From a virus (taxonomy: Duplodnaviria; Heunggongvirae; Uroviricota; Caudoviricetes): a stretch of 38,243 nucleotides of DNA. The position numbers and the translations under genes are program-made. The DNA is taken from positions 1 through 38,243 of the IMG/VR virus record IMGVR_UViG_2721755660_000008; one strand, given 5' to 3'. Numbering within the stretch: position 1 is the stretch's first letter; each line of letters starts with the position of its first letter. The notes under the pieces were generated by a model, which saw only the letters and a program-made list of their open reading frames with translations, ran no database searches and was not told the origin of the DNA. Below are positions 1 to 22,762 of the stretch, piece after piece.

Positions 1-2133
1 TCACTTAAAAGGAGTGTTTATCCTAACAACTCTCAAATAAACATCTCTTATATTTTCACCTCCATTTGGCCTTAAAATTGTTGCTGAAATAACTCCACTT
101 TGTGAAGCAGATACTGTTGCGTTATATACTAATGAACTATTGAATTGTTGAGCGTGTATTTGCCTTGATGTTGTTTCAATTTGCTCTCCGGCTCTCATCA
201 TAACTGCATGTTCTGAAAAACACCCGCCAGCACCAGTTGTTGTTGTCGCTGTAACCTCAACTCTATAGAAATACATAGCAAGCACACCTGAGTTTACTGA
301 ATTATTTGGAACTGGCACTTGTACGGTTATTGAGACTGGGCCGCTATCAACTCCTGTTGTCTGAGCACACCAGCCAATTTCACCATTCTGAGATATTAAT
401 GTGAATATGCATCGATCTTTTGTCCCAGCGTTTACCTGATACGTTGTTGTATAGGTGGCGCCATAGAAATGCTCTACGGTTATGGCAGTACCGAAGTTCT
501 CTCCCCAACCAGTCCATGAAGGCCAGATACTGGCATTGCTTTTAATGGCTACGCCATTATTGATGCACTTCAGAGACACTTTCCCATTATTACAAGAACT
601 CAAGAGCACAGGGACTCCAGGAATGCTGTTCCTTAGTGTTATCTCAACATCCGGCTGCTCTGCGGTTACCAACATTAATGGCTCGACTGTTCTTGGAACC
701 GTATTGAGCGGTATGTTAATCTCCATGTCACGCACTCGCGTCCTTGTACCGCCACATAGAAATGCGCACACACCACCTACATTAGCAGGAAGATAAAGTC
801 GAACACCTTCAAAAGACAAATCAAAAACATCCGATTGAGAATTTGTGATGATTTGAATAAGGTGTATAGGGCCGTTAACATTTTCTCCCGTAAAATTACT
901 CTTACTGGTGATGTTTCTGTAAATACCACCTGTTCCTGATACTTTTGCCGCAAACACTGGTGTGTCCGTCATGGTGCAAACCAAACCATCAACAACACAC
1001 CCTGTTGACCCCGTGAGTTGTAAAGTTACATTGCAGCCGCCGTATCTGTTAGATAGAGGTTCTCCGAACTCACCACAGTTTGTTATAGAACCACTAGTGT
1101 TATTGATATACATCAGGTGTGACGGACCATACGCACCGAAACTTTCGTCATGCCGCAATGTCCCATACACGTACTCAATATTGCATCCTGCAAAGTTGTT
1201 AATAAGTGCGCATGAATAGTGTGTACAATAGATGTTAGAGAATAGAGAGCCTCTAAAATCACCCTCATAACCAGAAACAAGGAAGTCGTAGCGATTATCA
1301 CTGGTTTCACCGACTGCCATCGCATTAATCAATTTGAAACGATACGCGTTTGAATTCATCCCGATAAAGCCACAGAACGCAGCTTCCCACGGGCGAGTAA
1401 TTCCATAGCGAGTGGTTGTTGTGCCCCCCAAAGGATAGCCGCCTTTATAGACAGCATTAAATCCCATAATGGTCACATCAGGATTCCTGTTCATGAAGAC
1501 CAGAAATCCAGTTTTCTCATGAGTTATTTTAGCACCGTTAAAATCAATATATGCACCAGCGGGAGGAGTGATGACATTTTCCTCATTCATCACCATACGA
1601 TATGTGGAACCTCTCTTCATGAGGCATCTTCCAGTCATAATAGCATTAGTCACCGCCACTGTATCATCAGCTACACCATCTCCAATTGCTCCATATTGCT
1701 CTGGCGTTGCCCAATATGACAAACTATCCGCTACTGTACCAGCCAAGTATCCAATTTTAGTTGCACCATCTTCTTCAGACAGCTCACTTCGAAATTGATC
1801 AGGGTCATACTTCAGCACATTTGGGAATTTGAACTGCTGTGCACCATACGCATCATAAACAGCCATAGAATGGCCTTGCTCAGTTACGAATTTGGCAATC
1901 TGTCCGTTATATACAGGGTAACCAGCGGCGTTAATGATGATTGGTTGCGAAACGGGAACATGAGAGCCGTCTTCGTTCTCTACATAAACCTGAATCTGGT
2001 TTTCTGGATTTACCGGGTCAGTGTCAATTTTACCGATATAAATTTTGCCATTGGCTACGGCTTTAAAAGAACGAGCCATAGTGAAGAGTTGCGAAGGCAT
2101 GCTAACTACAACATTGGCTGTAATGTCTGTCAT
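1..2133 (-). CDS. Tailspike protein: P22 gp9-type N-terminal head-binding domain plus a different beta-helix (pectate-lyase-like) receptor-binding domain
   Basis: ORF 1..2169; N-terminus [11 protein letters not shown]...[10 protein letters not shown] matches P22 tailspike head-binding domain; start placed at Met13 (2133) with GGAG RBS upstream; motif [12 protein letters not shown] typical of beta-helix depolymerases. Confidence 0.9.
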
Positions 2134-2189
2134 TTGATTTGCTCCAGATACAAGAAATCGCCGCAGCATGGCTACGGTGAATTTTGGGC

Positions 2190-2233: not shown

Positions 2234-3163
2234 TCAGTAGTTATGTACTGAAGGAGGTAATTCTTTATTCTTAAGTCTCATCCATGCGGAAAGATTCGCT
2301 GGTCCGTCTGGCTCATTAATATCAACATCTCGTGTGTGGTTTATTAAAACGTCTCTCGCCATTCCGATAACATACGAGAATTCATTACCGTAGTCGTAGC
2401 ATCTGCCGGAATAGTTCGATTGAATTTGTTTTAATGCCGGATACAGTTCGCGGAATAATGCCTGTGAGCGGTTGGCATAATCCCATAGCCATACAAGGCT
2501 GTTTGCTTCTTTTGCAGAAAGCTCGTCGGTTTTCTTCTCTTGTTTGCCGATGAACTCGCCTTCAAGTGGAACTCGAGCTGCAAGTGACAGTGCTTCGGCA
2601 AACTGCTCCTCACTGATTTCTTTGTATGAACACCCAAAATGAGATTTCAGTGACGACCACATGGTGATCATCGCCTTAGCCTGTTTTTCCTTTGGCAGAG
2701 ACTGACCGCGACTCATGACGAGTTGTTTAATGGCTTCCTGCTGTTCAGTGGTGATTTTACCCGGCAACGCCTTTTTAGCTTTGCGTGGGTTAACTACATG
2801 GCCTTTAGTCCAGTACTCGTATAGCACATCGTCACACTCTTCCTGATACTGGATTACCTTGTCGCGGATTTCAGGGCGGACTTTGTTTGGACTGATGGTT
2901 TGCAGCCAGCCAGCAAGTTTGCGAAGTGCCAAACAAATAATCTCACGGCACTGTTCATCACCAGGAAGCTGCATTGTGATTTTCACAATGGAGGTTTTAA
3001 ACCGTTGCTTTATTTTCGTAAACTGTGAAGCCCAATCCATACCCATACCTTCAACGATAGGTTTCATTGGGGTGTACGGCTCACCGTTGTGATTGACGAC
3101 ATAAAGCTCTGCGCCGTGGAATGGCACGTTGATAGTAGATACTGCTGTTGCTATACTTTTCAT
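2234..3163 (-). CDS. ant: Putative antirepressor (Ant-like)
   Basis: 309-aa ORF immediately downstream of an Arc-like RHH gene in the same orientation (P22 immI arrangement arc-ant-gene 9); N-terminal region resembles phage antirepressor N-domains; GAGGAA RBS. Confidence 0.5.
   Translation of the reverse strand: MKSIATAVSTINVPFHGAELYVVNHNGEPYTPMKPIVEGMGMDWASQFTKIKQRFKTSIVKITMQLPGDEQCREIICLALRKLAGWLQTISPNKVRPEIRDKVIQYQEECDDVLYEYWTKGHVVNPRKAKKALPGKITTEQQEAIKQLVMSRGQSLPKEKQAKAMITMWSSLKSHFGCSYKEISEEQFAEALSLAARVPLEGEFIGKQEKKTDELSAKEANSLVWLWDYANRSQALFRELYPALKQIQSNYSGRCYDYGNEFSYVIGMARDVLINHTRDVDINEPDGPANLSAWMRLKNKELPPSVHNY
3129..3157 (+). promoter_or_regulatory. Putative Psar-like promoter inside the 5' end of ant, firing antisense to ant
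   Basis: TTGATA-17 bp-TATACT on plus strand; predicted start about 3163-3165, directly opposite ant start codon and RBS. Confidence 0.45.
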
Positions 3164-3229: not shown

Positions 3230-3376
3230 TCATTCTGGACAAACAATTCCATCCTTAGCTACTGACTCCTTTAGTCTCCTCAATACCTCATTACTGAACG
3301 ACCGATCATCCTTTTTCGCGGACTGCTCCAAAGCCTTTTCCAGCCATTCTGGCATCCTTAATGTCTTAACTTTCAT
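3230..3376 (-). CDS. arc: Arc-like ribbon-helix-helix repressor (48 aa)
   Basis: Hand-translated ORF absent from the 60-aa ORF track: MKVKTLRMPEWLEKALEQSAKKDDRSFSNEVLRRLKESVAKDGIVCPE; beta-strand KTLRMP plus two helices as in P22 Arc; AAGGAG RBS 6 nt upstream of ATG. Confidence 0.65.
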   Translation of the reverse strand: MKVKTLRMPEWLEKALEQSAKKDDRSFSNEVLRRLKESVAKDGIVCPE

Positions 3377-3387
3377 TTTTGCTCCTT

Positions 3388-3435
3388 TGTATGCGGTACG
3401 CATACATAGTATTTAGGTACGCATTGATAGTCAAT
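3388..3435. promoter_or_regulatory. immI-like operator/promoter region: 19-bp palindrome TGTATGCG-gta-CGCATACA (3388-3406), palindrome ATTGA-tag-TCAAT (3423-3435), direct repeat GGTACGCAT x2
   Basis: Perfect inverted repeats in the 104-bp arc/mnt divergent intergenic region. Confidence 0.5.
3406..3434 (-). promoter_or_regulatory. Putative Pant promoter for arc-ant
   Basis: Minus strand TTGACT-17 bp-TACTAT; predicted start falls inside the 19-bp palindrome. Confidence 0.5.
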
Positions 3436-3480: not shown

Positions 3481-3732
3481 ATGTCTGATCGTAAGTACAA
3501 AAACCCTCAAGTGAATCTGAGGCTTCCTGTAGAGATAAAGGAACGTCTTATTGAACTGGCTGAGGCTAATTCTCGTTCATTAAATGCTGAGATGGTCGCA
3601 GCACTTGAAGCATGGACCGAAAAAAACAAACACATTCAAGCACTAGATCTTGCAACTATAGCATCGCGACTGATAGAGCTTGAGCATGATGTTGAGAAGT
3701 TAAAATGTATGCATGGCAATGGTGAAAAATGA
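3481..3732 (+). CDS. mnt: Mnt-like ribbon-helix-helix repressor (83 aa)
   Basis: N-terminus KNPQVNLRLPVEIKERLIELAEANSRSLNAEMVAALE is an Arc/Mnt-type RHH; same length as P22 Mnt; divergent from arc as in P22 immI. Confidence 0.6.
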   Translation: MSDRKYKNPQVNLRLPVEIKERLIELAEANSRSLNAEMVAALEAWTEKNKHIQALDLATIASRLIELEHDVEKLKCMHGNGEK

Positions 3733-4046
3733 AACGTATCGCTATCCTATTGCTCCTGTGTCTCTCGAGCATAGCTAACGCAGAAACAAAATCAGACGAT
3801 AGCAGTTTTGATGAAATACAAGGCCTCATGATAGCTTCTAAAATGGCTGGTATGTGTGGTGCAATCAAACAAATGGCAATATTCCAAGAATCTACAAACA
3901 TGCCAGGTGGGAATGAATTCTTACAGAGATTCCTTACTACAGAGCAAGCAAGGCTCGGGATGACTCCGCAGCAATTTCTTGAAGCATGTCAGAAATCAAT
4001 CTCTATTTATACCACCTATTACAATATGAGCTCTGAGAAAAAATAG
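3729..4046 (+). CDS. Small secreted (periplasmic) protein of unknown function, 105 aa
   Basis: Start overlaps mnt stop (ATGA); Sec-type signal peptide MKRIAILLLLCLSSIANA; AT-rich codons with several ATA. Confidence 0.6.
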   Translation: MKRIAILLLLCLSSIANAETKSDDSSFDEIQGLMIASKMAGMCGAIKQMAIFQESTNMPGGNEFLQRFLTTEQARLGMTPQQFLEACQKSISIYTTYYNMSSEKK

Positions 4047-4323
4047 ACTAGGATTTCAACGGCTTCCGCGTCCCTGAGTAATTCTGTTGCGGATTTGCTT
4101 CTTGCGGTGGTTTAAGCTGGAGAGCTTGGCTTCTGCTTCTGATATTTGCGCATCTAGATCTTTAAGCTCAAGATCTGAAAGTCGCTGGTCAAGCAGGAAG
4201 TCACTCCCTGTTACCGTTAGAACTCACAACATAAGCAATGTTGAATCCATAGCTAATATCGTTTTCCTGGCTGGCTCAGAACGTTTCGCAAACCTATTAT
4301 CAAGATTCCTGTTACATCCTCTA

Positions 4324-4581
4324 TTATGGGGCTTTGCCACCCCAGCCGCCGACCATGCCAGATTGAGAGAGTACGGGAAATGCCTCGATAACGATCTTGA
4401 TCGCTTCGTTGAGACGTTCAATATCGACATCGGAACCCATATTAGGTGGGCATCCCTGATAGCAGACTCGACCATTTTGGATGCTAACAAGGCTCTTGAG
4501 CATGGCATAATTAATTCCATAAAAACTGCAAGGCTGGTATCCAATCAGGCAAACTGGTGGGTTGTTTGATGGGTAAATCAT
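4324..4581 (-). CDS. Hypothetical Cys-containing protein, 85 aa
   Basis: AAGGAG RBS 5 nt upstream of ATG, directly after a terminator; no AGA/AGG/ATA codons, unlike the overlapping plus-strand ORF. Confidence 0.45.
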   Translation of the reverse strand: MIYPSNNPPVCLIGYQPCSFYGINYAMLKSLVSIQNGRVCYQGCPPNMGSDVDIERLNEAIKIVIEAFPVLSQSGMVGGWGGKAP

Positions 4582-4594
4582 GATTACTCCTTAT

Positions 4595-4625
4595 AAAAAA
4601 CCCACCTGACGGTGGGTTTCATTTC
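4595..4625. terminator. Bidirectional intrinsic terminator
   Basis: AAAAAA-CCCACC-tgac-GGTGGG-TTTCATTTC; flanked by A-run and T-run. Confidence 0.6.
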
Positions 4626-5045
4626 TTAATCTTGCTTCGTAGAAGGTATAAGAGATGCATTTGCCTCTTTTGGCTTCAATGTATACATCCCACCATTAAA
4701 TGGATCAACAGCAAGCCAACCGATTAACCCACCAAACACAAGGTTTCCACCAATATACCAACCATTAGCATTGGCTTTGATTGGCAGGGTAACTGGTTCG
4801 TACCCATCCTTTTCCATAGTGATCTGGTAGCTCTTTTTGCCAAAATAACTACCATCTGACTTGGCAAGAGTTACTCCTTGTGGAGTCTTGCCTTGCGCAA
4901 CAATCACGCCTGATTCATCTTTTACCTTAAAGCTCGCACCGGAAGGGTTGCTGTTCACTTGCACAAGTTGCGTTTCATCACCAACAATAGTTGCGCACCC
5001 AGATAACATGATAGCGCCAGCAACGACGCTAATAATCCTCTTCAT
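4626..5045 (-). CDS. Lipoprotein of unknown function (possible superinfection exclusion moron)
   Basis: ORF 4626..5057; signal peptide with lipobox LSGC (MKRIISVVAGAIMLSGC); start placed at second Met (5045); located between gp16-like gene and immI region where P22 carries sieA. Confidence 0.65.
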   Translation of the reverse strand: MKRIISVVAGAIMLSGCATIVGDETQLVQVNSNPSGASFKVKDESGVIVAQGKTPQGVTLAKSDGSYFGKKSYQITMEKDGYEPVTLPIKANANGWYIGGNLVFGGLIGWLAVDPFNGGMYTLKPKEANASLIPSTKQD

Positions 5046-5140
5046 ATCAATTTCCATATCTAAAAAACCGGAAACATCCTAATGACAAACCATTCAAATG
5101 TGAAGCACGAGATAAGATCAATCCATCCGTGGACGACTAA

Positions 5141-7309
5141 TTACTCCTGTGTCATTCCGCTTAGCGATGCCACAATCCCAGCCCTCGACAAACGCTGGAA
5201 CTCTTCGTTTCCTAGTGCATCGCGAATTGCTTTTACGGCGGCCTTATTTGCCATAAATCTGCGTTCCGCCGCCGCTAATGCGCCATCACTTGCCCCAACT
5301 TTAACTGCCTTTGTCGCCTCTTGAACAGCCTTTTCAATAGCGTAACGACCACTTCTGGTTGCGGATAATTTCGCTATCGATCCTTTTGCTATTGCATCAA
5401 TTGCTCCACCTGCAGCGCCACCCACTATTGCTCCAATAACACCTCCTCCAGAGAACCCTGCGATAGCGCCAGCGGTTGGAAAAGCGCCAGACAATACGCT
5501 CTCTAAAACTGGATGAAGGCCATTCTCAAGAGTGCTAATGGCTGGCATAGAGCGCCCTGTTTGTTCAACATATCGAAGTGGCTTTGTTGCTGCTCTTGCA
5601 AGTTCTCCAAACCCCCTAGCAATCCTACCAAGCTCTGGAGAATATCGACTAATTGCCTTCACGTTTTGTGGGGTAAGAATAGTCGCGATATGCTTAATTC
5701 CAGCCTCTTCAGACTTACCTCCTCGTACCCCTTGCGATACCGCATCTTGTAATATTGATGCAATTGCTGGCGCGCGTTCCGACTCAGGTAGGGCGCTTAT
5801 TATTTTATGGAACTGACCTGTTCCACTTTTTGCTGAACCCTGCAACGCCTTAGAGCCATTAGTTACCAACTGATCAGTTGCAAGGTCTCTACCAAACGCT
5901 GCTTCAGCCTGTTCTTGTGCTGTAAATCTTGCTTTTGATAGATCATTAGCTTTTTGCCAGTCATCAAGAAAACCGCCATTTTGAGCCATTATGCGCATAT
6001 CTTCCGTTGCTGCATCACGAAGCTCAGCCATGCGCCTTGCCGTATTTGCCTCACCAGACCTTATATACTTCTGCTCTGCGTCAGCAAGTTTACTTCGCCA
6101 TGCCTTCATGGCATCAAACGTGATTCCTTTTTTACCAGTTTTAGCATAAGCAGATGCGAATTGTTTCATCTCAGGAGTTAGCGGCATGCCAGCCAAAATA
6201 TCACCCTGAATTGTAGCGTTCAGGTTTGACATTCTGGCCTTTGCGTCAGGCATCGTGGAGCGGACGCTATCCCATGCGGCCTTTTCTGAATTTTTCATTT
6301 TATCAATACTTGCCAAAACCCTTTGTTTTATGGCTGCACTTTTTTCTGATGCAGTTCCTGCTTCAGCCCCAAACTCATCCAATGCTGAGTTAAATTTCGA
6401 CTCTATTTCACTGAATGCTTTGGTGTGTGCATCCTGTGTAATTCCGGGCTTTGACGCCAGAATCCCCTCCGCCTGAGCAAGACCACGACTACCTGATCTC
6501 ATGCCAGGAGTTAATGCGTTGATATCTATTCCAGCAGTATCTGCTGCTTTTGCTATTTCGTCTGACACATTAGCTGACTGTCTGGCAATAATCTCTCTTC
6601 CTGTACCAGACTTTGCCATTTTCGAAACATCAGCAGCGGAATTTATTGCCCCGCCACCAAGAACTTGAGGTGATTTAGAGGTTAAGATCCTTCCAGCCCC
6701 AGAAAGTATCCCCTGAGCACCAATATTGATACCACCGTTAATGGCAGCATTTTGTGCAAAGTCGCCCTCCTGATTTGCAGCATCAGCAAGAGAACCGGCA
6801 ATCATGTTTCCTGCGGAACCGATGTCTCCTGCTAGCTTTGCTGGCGCTCCAGCAGCTTTTGCTGCTGTGCCAATTGGCAGGAGATACCCACCAATTGTTT
6901 CACCGGCTTGCGCGTAAGGGTCTGTCGGTCGCTCGACAGGGCGATAAACATCATCCAAAACCTTGGGGCCGCCAAGCCCCTGGCTGATTGCATTAATCAG
7001 ACTTGCGCCACCCTGCAATACGTCAAATGGTATGTTTACCAGACCACGACCAGCCTGTTCTGCAATTTGCCCTGCACTTTGACCACCAGTGAGCCAATCG
7101 CCAGCTTGTTGCATCAATGATGGTTCTTCTTTCTGCTGCTGAGGTGGAGGGTATGCTGCATAAAACTGATCTCTTGCTTCAGCCCATTTGTCACCAGCCT
7201 TAGGGGCAACAACCTCATCAAAATATTGCGCTTGAGCCTGTGCTTTCTGTTCTTCAGTTAACGCCTGATACTGTGGAGAAGCGATAACATCTTTCCATGC
7301 TTTAGCCAT
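5141..7309 (-). CDS. DNA ejection/injection protein (P22 gp16-like), 722 aa
   Basis: Position after gp20 homologue; Gly/Ala-rich large protein; start overlaps gp20 stop (TAATG). Confidence 0.8.
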
Positions 7310-8658
7310 TAATCACCCCATAAAGACGAGAAACCGGACTTATTGCTGTCGCTTCCTGATTTTCGCTCACTAACATATGTGTCATAACCTGATGAACTAT
7401 ATCCCATTGATTCAGCCTCCATTGCTGCAACCTTTTGAAATACAGAATATTGCGATCGGATTTCAGATAACTGTTTTCTGACGACCTCTTCAGGCTGTGT
7501 TATATCGAGTTTCGCGATCAGGTTTTCCAGTTTTTGGCCTTCAGCATTGGAGAGGCTCCCCATACCTCGCATAATCTGCACGTTCTGGACAAACGCACCC
7601 GACTTTAATTCTTCTATCGCATTACGGTTTGCAAGCCCTTCAGCACTTGTGAAGACATCTATATTTCTTCCTTCGAAGCGACCGATACCTTCAAGCTCCT
7701 TCTTACCAAGCAAAGAATCTATTTTCTCTATCCCTCGCTCACCAGTAATCAACGCTTTGTTGTAATTATTGTTGCCATCAAGCCATCTCTTAGCCTGAGA
7801 CATTCTGGCTGACGTTGCAGCTTTACCGGTTAGAGGATCAATTCCCGTCGCTGCTATCTGTGAGTTAAGAGACAAAACATCCATATCCTGAAGTTGTCCT
7901 GCTCTTTCAAGGGCCGCCTGTGACTGCTTAAACACATACTTGTCGTGATTCAGTCTTGCCATTTGAGCCTTATAGGAAAGATCCTGCCCCCTAATAGCCC
8001 TCGCATTCGTCATGTCATTATTGCGAATGGTTTCGTTAATTCTTTGCTGCTCCTGCTGGCGACCAACCATCTTATCCTGAACAGCAAACGCCTTTTCTGG
8101 TCCAAGCGCACCGAGAGACATAGTAGTCAGCATGTGTGATAGCTGCTCTGGATTCTGGATACCTGTCTGAATCATCCAGTCAGCATTAGCACCAACGCGA
8201 TTTAACCTGTCCTTGTTGTTAGTAATGAATTTACTGTAGGCTTCCGGTCCCTGAGAAAGAGCGACGTTAGCCCTCATGGCTAAATCGCCCATATCGTTGC
8301 GTTGCTGATCATTAAGACCAGAAAACGCCTGTTGTGCCTGTGCAACAAACGCTGGATTTTCCTGGGCAAACTTAAATAGTCCCGATGGATCACCAGAAGC
8401 CCATGCATCAGCGTGAACCTTATTGAACGCACTAATAGCTTTCTGTTGCTGTTCCTGATTGTAAATATCAGCAACTCCAGCCAGACCACGTAACGCGGTC
8501 AGGCCAACGTTATTTGCACCTGAGCGAGCCAGTTCATTGTTTTCGCGGATCAGACCAAGCGTTGCGTTAATGTCGCTTGCCTTTGGCGCATTCTCATTTT
8601 GCGTACCGATGCCAGCCAGAAAACCACCAGAATTAATACCCTGTTGCCACGTAGCCAT
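7309..8658 (-). CDS. DNA ejection protein (P22 gp20-like)
   Basis: 449-aa ORF in conserved position between gp7 and gp16 homologues. Confidence 0.8.
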
Positions 8659-22138: not shown

Positions 22139-22762
22139 CTAACGTGTGACCGCATTCAATATGTTGTCTGCGATTGACTCTTCTTTGTGGCATTGCACCA
22201 CCAGAACGTCATACAGCGGCTTAACAGTGCGTGACCAGGTGGGTTGGGTAAGGTTTGGGATTAGCATCGTCACAGCGCGATATGCTGCGCTTGCTGGCAT
22301 CCTTGAATAGCCGACGCCTTTGCATCTTCCGCACTCTTTCTCGACAACTCTCCCCCACTGCTCTGTTTTTGCTATATCAACCGCACGGCCTGTACCGTGG
22401 CAATCTCTGCATCTTGCGCCCGGCGTCGCGGCACTACGGCAATAATCCGCATAAGCGAATGTTGCGAGCACTTGCAGTACCTTTGCCTTAGTATTTCCTT
22501 CGAGCTTTGCCACACCACGGTATTTCCCCGATACCTTGTGTGCAAATTGCATCAGATAGTTGATAGCCTTTTGTTTGTCGTTCTGGCTGAGTTCGTGCTT
22601 ACCACAGAATGCAGCCATTCCGAATCCGGCTTGTGATTGCGCCATCCCCATAGCAGCCATCACATCAGTACCGGAAAGAGAGTCAGAAGCTGTAGCCCGT
22701 GGTGAGTCGCTCATCATCGGGCTTTTTGGCGAATGAAATTTAGCTACGCTTTCGAGTCTCAT
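22139..22762 (-). CDS. Q: Late gene antiterminator Q (lambda-type)
   Basis: 207 aa MRLESVAKFHSPKSPMMSDSPRATASDS... matching lambda Q as recalled. Confidence 0.95.
   Translation of the reverse strand: MRLESVAKFHSPKSPMMSDSPRATASDSLSGTDVMAAMGMAQSQAGFGMAAFCGKHELSQNDKQKAINYLMQFAHKVSGKYRGVAKLEGNTKAKVLQVLATFAYADYCRSAATPGARCRDCHGTGRAVDIAKTEQWGRVVEKECGRCKGVGYSRMPASAAYRAVTMLIPNLTQPTWSRTVKPLYDVLVVQCHKEESIADNILNAVTR

Follow-up and report, generated by a model that had tools for sequence, protein, structure and literature searches.

A lipoprotein moron and a probable antisense overlapping gene in a ClpP-like remnant at the gene 16 end of the 'ant moron' of a P22-like Escherichia coli prophage

The interval between positions 4324 and 5057 of a P22-like (Lederbergvirus-type) Escherichia coli prophage (IMG/VR record IMGVR_UViG_2721755660_000008; the whole stretch of 38,243 nucleotides (nt) that was analysed is called the window) is best explained, with a probability that we put at about two in three (0.68), as two unrelated things at the gene 16 end of the 'ant moron'. 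One is a self-contained lipoprotein gene, a near-identical copy of which is transcribed from a lysogen; the other is ORF85, an 85-codon open reading frame (ORF) that is probably a genuine overlapping gene of the late operon, embedded antisense in what is left of a ClpP-like gene. The interval from gene 16 to the tailspike corresponds to the 'ant moron' of Villafane et al., a region of rapid genetic flux (PMC2629481).

Results

The original prediction, made from the sequence of the window, had placed a lipoprotein and a Cys-rich protein of 85 amino acids (aa) at the position that sieA holds in P22. The features on which our reading of the interval depends are as follows.

4324-4581, minus strand: ORF85, 85 codons and stop, phrog_7758, in frame -1 antisense to the ClpP-like frame and co-oriented with the late operon
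4587-4592, minus strand: Shine-Dalgarno (SD) sequence AAGGAG of ORF85, with a 5-nt spacer to the ATG at 4581
4198-4569, plus strand: ClpP-like 3' remnant, 123 codons and stop, codons 56-178 of a 178-aa moron gene
4595-4619, minus strand: intrinsic terminator of the lipoprotein transcript, hairpin 4619-4598 and T-run 4600-4595
4626-5045, minus strand: prolipoprotein gene, 139 aa, stop codon included in the coordinates, lipobox LSGC, frame open from 5057
5076-5104, minus strand: putative sigma-70 promoter of the lipoprotein moron, -35 TTCACA (5104-5099), 17-nt spacer, -10 TAGGAT (5081-5076)

The lipoprotein gene is a self-contained moron, with a putative promoter, a terminator and insertion sites that vary. 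A 139-aa product with the lipobox LSGC had been predicted, in an interval bounded at 5057; the length and the lipobox stand and the start is placed at 5045, since homologues begin with MKK or MKR and the ATG at 5057 is ACG in phage Gally. The N-terminus, MKRIISVVAGAIMLSGC..., has a classical lipobox, and the signal peptide MKRIISVVAGAIMLSG ends directly before the Cys, with Ala at +2. A positively charged n-region, a hydrophobic h-region, the lipobox and a conserved Cys are all present, Cys17 being invariant and G16 nearly invariant among 36 homologues, and a Gly-rich motif, NGWYIGGNLVFGGLIGWLAVDPFNGGMYTL, lies at the C-terminus. The promoter-like site scored 9/12 in a consensus scan, and its hexamers are kept in epsilon34 and STEC384, with TAAGAT in Gally. 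On the minus strand the terminator hairpin has a 10-bp stem with a folding energy of -16.2 kcal/mol (z = -3.8), and UUUUUUAU comes after it. On either strand, no shuffle out of 200 folded as well. The 'strong bidirectional terminator' of the original prediction is asymmetric: the canonical U-run is found on the minus strand only, and the plus-strand tail, UUUCAUUUCUU, is weaker. On the plus strand, this hairpin comes after the 3' end of the ClpP-like frame.

Published expression data cover a copy of this lipoprotein that is identical at 137 of 139 positions (99 %), GALLYPH_14 of the Gally prophage in E. coli LF82. Its log2(fpkm+5), where fpkm is fragments per kilobase per million, was 9.8-10.5 in conditions B1/B6, which appear to be macrophage-free bacteria, and reached 11.0 and 9.4-9.5 within macrophages, while the adjacent injection gene stayed at 3.6-4.1 throughout (PMC9928086, tables S1/S4). 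The lipoprotein copy thus exceeded the adjacent late gene about 50- to 130-fold, stationary phase in lysogeny broth (LB) excepted, which shows independent expression of the near-identical allele from the prophage. In LB stationary phase GALLYPH_14 reached only 6.2/4.8, and the difference between macrophages and LB stationary phase was +3.84 log2 (PMC9928086). The low value in LB stationary phase is the reason why the authors of that study did not list the gene as a moron (PMC9928086).

The protein belongs to a very large family. It matches phrog_6823, of unknown function, end to end (E = 2.6e-86), and its gene is 93.8 % identical in nucleotides to gene 15 of epsilon34, which encodes a member of the same protein family. 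There were 715 homologues in a 90 % clustered database, and a profile of 36 homologues retrieved 5382 cluster representatives with E <= 1e-3, 2011 of them with E <= 1e-10; much of the C-terminal NGWYIGGNxVFGGLIGWLxVDPFNGGMYTLxP is, like Cys17, invariant among the 36. AlphaFold2 (AF2) predicted a beta-sandwich, with a predicted local distance difference test (pLDDT) of 83-95 for blocks 21-60 and 71-90 and a dip to 77 at 61-70, and the values fell to about 48-58 at residues 91-120, which include the Gly-rich segment, before a small C-terminal hairpin. Residues ~22-93 are accordingly modelled as a PEGA-like beta-sandwich. All homologues that share 68-77 % identity with the window protein are phage morons, at differing sites: the slot between tail chaperone and tape measure genes in E. 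coli lambdoid and Proteus prophages, and the one between gpI and gpJ in Pseudescherichia. Homologues at 57 % and 67 % identity have ordinary chromosomal neighbourhoods, beside pepN or ymgB. This combination of phage morons at varied sites and chromosomal homologues suggests a bacterial envelope lipoprotein that has been repeatedly captured by phages. Among longer relatives, Pfam identified a single fusion, to an OmpA-like barrel, and our literature search found nothing on the family.

With Ala at +2, the lipoprotein would be lipidated and sorted by Lol to the inner face of the outer membrane, where the beta-sandwich and the Gly-rich C-terminal segment may act on the envelope as a lysogenic-conversion factor. 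Two points weigh against this picture: the placement is predicted from the +2 rule alone, and the Pfam PEGA model (PF08308) scored 17.5 bits against a gathering threshold of 20.8. We lean towards a general envelope or host-fitness role and keep interference with phage entry as the second option.

A more specific proposal is that the lipoprotein, perhaps with ORF85, replaces SieA in superinfection exclusion and blocks a receptor or DNA entry. The 'sieA position' of the original prediction agrees in map terms, since P22 sieA is also beside gene 16, but not in orientation: P22 sieA lies on the strand opposite to gene 16, co-oriented with mnt, and the window lipoprotein is co-oriented with gene 16. 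No meaningful similarity to P22 SieA was seen by BLASTP (E = 0.039 over 31 residues), and matches to Cor were confined to the signal peptide, namely residues 5-33 for NCBIfam NF047972 (13.3 bits, cut-off 31) and residues 5-24 only for the PHROG Cor model phrog_1119 (E = 7.7e-4). PADLOC gave no match for the lipoprotein, ORF85, the ClpP-like protein or a 105-aa ORF downstream of mnt. Exclusion lipoproteins such as Cor and Llp are nevertheless known in phages, and the protein studied here is a prophage-expressed envelope protein that adjoins ejection genes and whose homologues recur in tail clusters, including the tail chaperone/tape measure slot, which is that of the exclusion moron gp15 in HK97. 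On the other hand, the same protein is found in podoviruses and siphoviruses, which would use different receptors, and its family is very large, with distant members in ordinary chromosomal neighbourhoods. Taken together, we consider replacement of SieA unlikely.

Like Cor (phi80/N15/HK022), Llp (T5) and Bor/Iss (lambda), the lipoprotein is small and phage-encoded and has its own expression signals amid late or tail genes. Unlike Cor, Llp and Bor, with which the signal peptide is the only shared sequence, it has a PEGA-like sandwich, a Gly-rich C-terminus and a very large bacterial family. P22 SieA and the 'ant moron' (immI region) share with it the map interval from gene 16 to the tailspike, but SieA is a protein of the inner membrane whose gene lies on the other strand, and the two are unrelated in sequence. 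By sequence comparison the lipoprotein is thus one more member of the class of phage moron lipoproteins, outside the Cor, Llp, Bor and SieA families.

Downstream of the terminator, the predicted AAGGAG (4592-4587) and 85-aa frame, with its ATG at 4581, were confirmed. The frame is not a free-standing gene for a Cys-rich protein: it is embedded antisense in the ClpP-like remnant, of which it is the exact codon-for-codon reverse complement over the last 81 codons. It has four Cys (positions 11, 18, 40, 44) and not five, and its composition, rich in Cys, Gly and Pro, is likely a by-product of antisense coding.

The plus strand of this locus derives from a coding gene. DNA 4198-4623 is 99.5 % identical to positions 10883-11308 of phage phiv205-1, whose plus strand encodes a 178-aa ClpP-like protein directly downstream of mnt. 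The full-length 178-aa protein matches Pfam CLP_protease PF00574 (46.7 bits, E = 4.3e-12) as well as ClpP-related NCBIfam and PHROG models, and 68 homologues of 178-200 aa were found in Enterobacterales and beyond; substitutions in the family follow the order third position > first > second, which indicates that the plus strand is genuinely coding. In the window, the first 55 codons are gone, with no apparent start or ribosome binding site, and the 160-aa ORF 4087-4569 that contains the fragment gives CLP_protease only 15 bits (E = 0.023), below the cut-off of 20.2; this copy is probably a pseudogene. ClpP and phage ClpP-related proteases (PF00574, NF045542) share the ClpP fold and the invariant Ser and His with the 178-aa protein, which differs from them in being a minimal stand-alone moron, often co-transcribed with mnt, rather than the prohead protease of a head module, and which reaches 49.7 bits against equivalog models with a curated cut-off of 120.

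ORF85 was examined across 108 ClpP-like loci, 64 of them unique sequences (individual loci are cited below by L number). Its signatures occur in most enterobacterial lineages of the ClpP-like gene, at 52-100 % identity. The minus-strand ATG is preceded by GGAG, GGAGG or GAGG, with spacer bases that vary by lineage; its complement, CAT, directly abuts the ClpP-like stop, ending 3 nt past it, in lineages whose ClpP-like protein is 44-60 % identical to that of E. coli, and ends 12 nt past the stop in the E. coli group. From this ATG, 77-99 antisense codons are open in about eight diverged groups. Taken alone, an 85-codon open frame -1 is mildly unusual (synonymous-shuffle P = 0.004 for the E. coli allele; 0.0004 to 0.12 by lineage). 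Across lineages, the conservation of the frame is, on these sequences, far beyond chance.

Codon usage points in the same direction. TTA, CTA and TCA are the only sense codons that give antisense stops, and in ORF-bearing lineages they account for 101/295 Leu and Ser codons outside the overlap and for 0/159 in the last 75 codons (Fisher P about 1e-22, with lineages that are not independent). In ORF-lacking lineages the depletion is much weaker (31/105 outside, 10/62 inside), and A-ending codons of other amino acids are barely altered by the overlap (24 % vs 20 %).

Start and open frame were lost together in 8 unique sequences from about five lineages. In L011, L091, L093, L113, L106, L025 and L112 the SD and ATG are absent and the open stretch is 34-53 codons; L077 has 77 open codons, yet its homologous region is interrupted by a stop codon, and there is no start codon close to the ClpP-like stop. 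In L094, of the Pantoea group, an 88-codon antisense frame is open and the start codon is ATA instead of ATG, a possible sign of very recent loss or of a non-canonical start.

Selection was assessed in five phylogenetically independent close pairs. Sense third positions differ in 232/496 codons of the 5' part and in 99/417 of the overlap, while differences at positions 1 and 2 rise from 68/992 to 81/834. When the ORF is missing from one member of a pair, the third-position drop is not seen (0.59 to 0.54; 0.58 to 0.54). Recent shared ancestry of the 3' half was ruled out as a source of the lower synonymous divergence, since amino-acid divergence is higher there. With a home-made, OLGenie-style estimator, applied to few pairs and with controls lacking the ORF that are more saturated, pNN/pNS was 0.41 in the overlap (bootstrap confidence interval 0.27-0.59), 0.95 in the 5' control and 0.81 in ORF-lacking pairs. 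Divergence that is synonymous in the sense frame and nonsynonymous in the antisense frame fell 2.4-fold, from 0.705 in the control to 0.30 in the overlap. The locus therefore combines a conserved start and ribosome binding site, a frame kept open and a pNN/pNS below 1, as expected of purifying selection on a functional antisense gene.

Several observations weigh against this reading of ORF85. The pooled P-values are inflated by the phylogenetic relatedness of the lineages, the value of 0.81 for the more saturated ORF-lacking pairs is not 1, and pNN/pNS could be deflated by sense-conservative NS changes. Frame -1 is the frame with most long shadow ORFs. Database matches to ORF85 are near-identical gene calls only, and AF2 gave a pLDDT of 51 from a shallow alignment, with no confident fold. 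Between groups the antisense proteins are 18-31 % identical, and their invariant residues mirror sense constraints. Finally, several lineages hold the ClpP-like gene without ORF85, which suggests that the ORF is dispensable and argues against a strict antidote model.

Much of this would be expected if ORF85 were a meaningless shadow ORF, picked by gene callers when the ClpP-like gene is damaged and preceded by a coincidental SD and ATG. The plus strand has clear ClpP homology and the substitution pattern of a coding frame, the conserved antisense residues are those forced by the sense motifs WWV and LDNDLxRF, the AF2 confidence is poor, and high-GC relatives have long open antisense frames from composition alone. 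Gene callers also alternate between the frames at one locus: among near-identical loci, L007 14365-14622 is called as an 85-aa ORF and the equivalent of L004, L005 and L008 (about 14376-14912) as ClpP-like, and never both. Such an explanation does not account for an SD and ATG that are conserved outside the sense gene although the spacer bases vary, for the absence of antisense-stop codons (0/159 vs 101/295) where other A-ending codons hardly change, for the joint loss of start and open frame in eight unique sequences, or for a synonymous divergence that halves in ORF-retaining pairs only. We consider a shadow ORF improbable, and regard ORF85 as likely a selected, translated frame.

What is selected could also be the act of translation and not its product, with ribosomes limiting Rho-dependent polarity or RNase attack, or disturbing mnt or ClpP-like expression, and thereby tuning the tailspike or tail genes. 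ORF85 always lies where late transcription enters the inverted ClpP-like moron, and its amino-acid sequence diverges fast between groups, both of which would fit. The pNN/pNS of 0.41 and the 2.4-fold drop, however, suggest that residues are constrained and not just the openness of the frame, ORF85 spans only about a third of the antisense stretch, and lambdoid Q-modified polymerase is already resistant to termination. Selection on translation alone seems to us as improbable as a shadow ORF, and we think it somewhat more likely than not that the protein product of ORF85 is what matters.

Phage annotations sometimes include ORF85 as a hypothetical protein (phrog_7758), with the overlap unremarked, and our literature search found no account of a frame antisense to the ClpP-like gene of a phage. 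In every context examined, the flanking late genes (tape measure, gpL, lysis genes, gp16) point the same way as ORF85, and the ClpP-like gene is inverted. Some E. coli alleles have no terminator ahead of ORF85, which there follows the upstream late gene. In the window, the lipoprotein terminator immediately upstream leaves no room for a promoter, so transcription of ORF85 should need terminator read-through. Of the two routes to expression first proposed, read-through thus agrees with a terminator that abuts the ribosome binding site, and a promoter of its own does not fit in the space available.

The neighbouring genes of the window are the following.

1-2169, minus strand: tailspike
2234-3163, minus strand: ant
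3230-3403, minus strand: arc
3481-3732, plus strand: mnt
3729-4046, plus strand: 105-aa exported protein
4056-4197, minus strand: XhlA-family / Emek orf61-like coiled-coil 3' remnant, 46 codons and stop, promoterless and without start codon
5141-7309, minus strand: gp16-type ejection gene, end of gene at 5141
7309-8658, minus strand: gp20
22139-22762, minus strand: Q-family antiterminator, upstream at the head of the late operon (PF03589, E = 9e-58)

Holin and Rz genes also lie upstream, on the minus strand like Q, and the whole interval 4324-5057 is consequently part of the late transcription unit, which extends to the tailspike. Rfam families were not detected anywhere in the window.

The ClpP-like and XhlA-like remnants meet at a recombination junction at 4197/4198. 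The XhlA-like remnant shares 99.3 % identity with CREC-591, in which the PGAP annotation reads 'hemolysin XhlA family protein', and 98.6 % with Emek; an in-frame fusion to upstream minus-strand ORFs was ruled out by a stop at 4224-4226 and the lack of a start codon. STEC384 and L078 represent the intact right-hand parent, with mnt followed by the ClpP-like gene and the terminator, and with the lipoprotein gene convergent on them. No high-identity alignment crossed the junction in a single piece among the fetched loci or 5426 complete E. coli genomes: nine high-identity full-coverage matches were each split in two pieces, and the only single-piece full-length match, H69, was 82.9 % identical. 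The truncation of the ClpP-like gene therefore looks rare and recent.

The 105-aa ORF has an ATG that overlaps the stop codon of mnt (ATGA) and a cleavable-looking signal peptide (MKRIAILLLLCLSSIANA, cleaved before E), and it matches phrog_19844 end to end. Its product appears to be a periplasmic protein, expressed from the prophage in one transcript with mnt, in the operon slot that sieA/orf59a hold in P22.

Elsewhere, the ClpP-like gene (178-187 aa; L001 3836-4372, L029 5001-5537, L031 5001-5540, L004-L008) is a widespread inverted moron of late operons, found after mnt in P22-like phages, between the lysis genes and the terminase in a Leclercia prophage and beside tape-measure genes in Pantoea/Erwinia phages. 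In the E. coli lambdoid prophages L004, L005, L007 and L008 (about 12200-16400), a whole immI-like module (Mnt-like, ClpP-like, Arc, Ant) is inserted between tail genes L and K, and the same tail cluster has a porin moron between M and L and a homologue of the lipoprotein between T and H. The porin and the homologue of the lipoprotein are also present in L006, which is devoid of the immI-like module, and LF82 is without the ClpP-like module. In phiv205-1 (L001 4425-4907, minus strand), the product of the gene convergent on the ClpP-like gene is 160 aa long and matches NsnC weakly in PADLOC (E = 8.9e-6), a hint that defence functions may be among the other cargo of this slot.

Discussion

Our results are consistent with a history in which ORF85 arose by overprinting, antisense to an inverted ClpP-like moron gene. 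In the prophage, the terminator on the minus strand would silence ORF85, and the plus strand (mnt and, in the parental arrangement, the ClpP-like gene) would be transcribed. During lytic growth, Q-modified polymerase would pass the terminator on its way to the tailspike and ORF85 would be translated from its AAGGAG/ATG; the presence of a Q gene in the window and the established behaviour of lambdoid late operons are the grounds for expecting such read-through. Illegitimate recombination at 4197/4198 would then have cost the ClpP-like gene its first 55 codons, and ORF85 alone would have stayed intact. Our best guess is that ORF85 may act as a late-phase modulator linked to the ClpP-like moron. 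An extension of this idea, which we offer as speculation and hold to be rather improbable, is that the ClpP-like gene and ORF85 form a single module with two strands and two states, in which the lysogen would produce the protease, in many cases from the mnt promoter, and the ORF85 protein would appear only under antiterminated late transcription, antagonising, replacing or redirecting the protease. If so, the overlap would guarantee joint inheritance, and an accessory system would be coded on opposite strands of the same codons.

On the comparative evidence, ORF85 would join the antisense embedded overlapping genes, a class that is small and debated. Like pop/ompA, ano, asa and laoB of enterohaemorrhagic E. 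coli (EHEC) and olg1/olg2 of Pseudomonas, it lies antisense in an older annotated gene, was presumably overprinted, has its own SD and start, and is ignored or inconsistently called by pipelines. The EHEC and Pseudomonas genes rest mainly on ribosome profiling (Ribo-seq) in one strain and on phenotypes, whereas ORF85 is documented by comparison across at least eight diverged phage lineages. ORF85 differs from them further in being in frame -1, in residing on a mobile phage moron and in being oriented with the late operon while its partner is oriented with the prophage genes, and, in contrast to published examples, the two strands of its host moron are expected to be active in different states of the life cycle. 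A large screen for E. coli antisense genes mentions no Clp gene.

Antisense embedded genes of bacteria and phages are still disputed, since the case for most candidates comes from expression data obtained in one strain. With start signals conserved outside the partner gene, a frame that is open in many lineages, joint loss and a local drop in synonymous divergence, ORF85 offers a clean test case, in which the change of one Leu codon, synonymous in the ClpP-like gene, would knock out the antisense frame. That annotation pipelines call either frame at this locus shows how overlapping frames are suppressed by annotation. The analysis also brings to light a ClpP-like moron of the immI/ant-moron region that is widespread and uncharacterised, and beside it a lipoprotein that would be an envelope protein of wide occurrence, expressed from prophages and, in an adherent-invasive E. 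coli strain, induced in macrophages.

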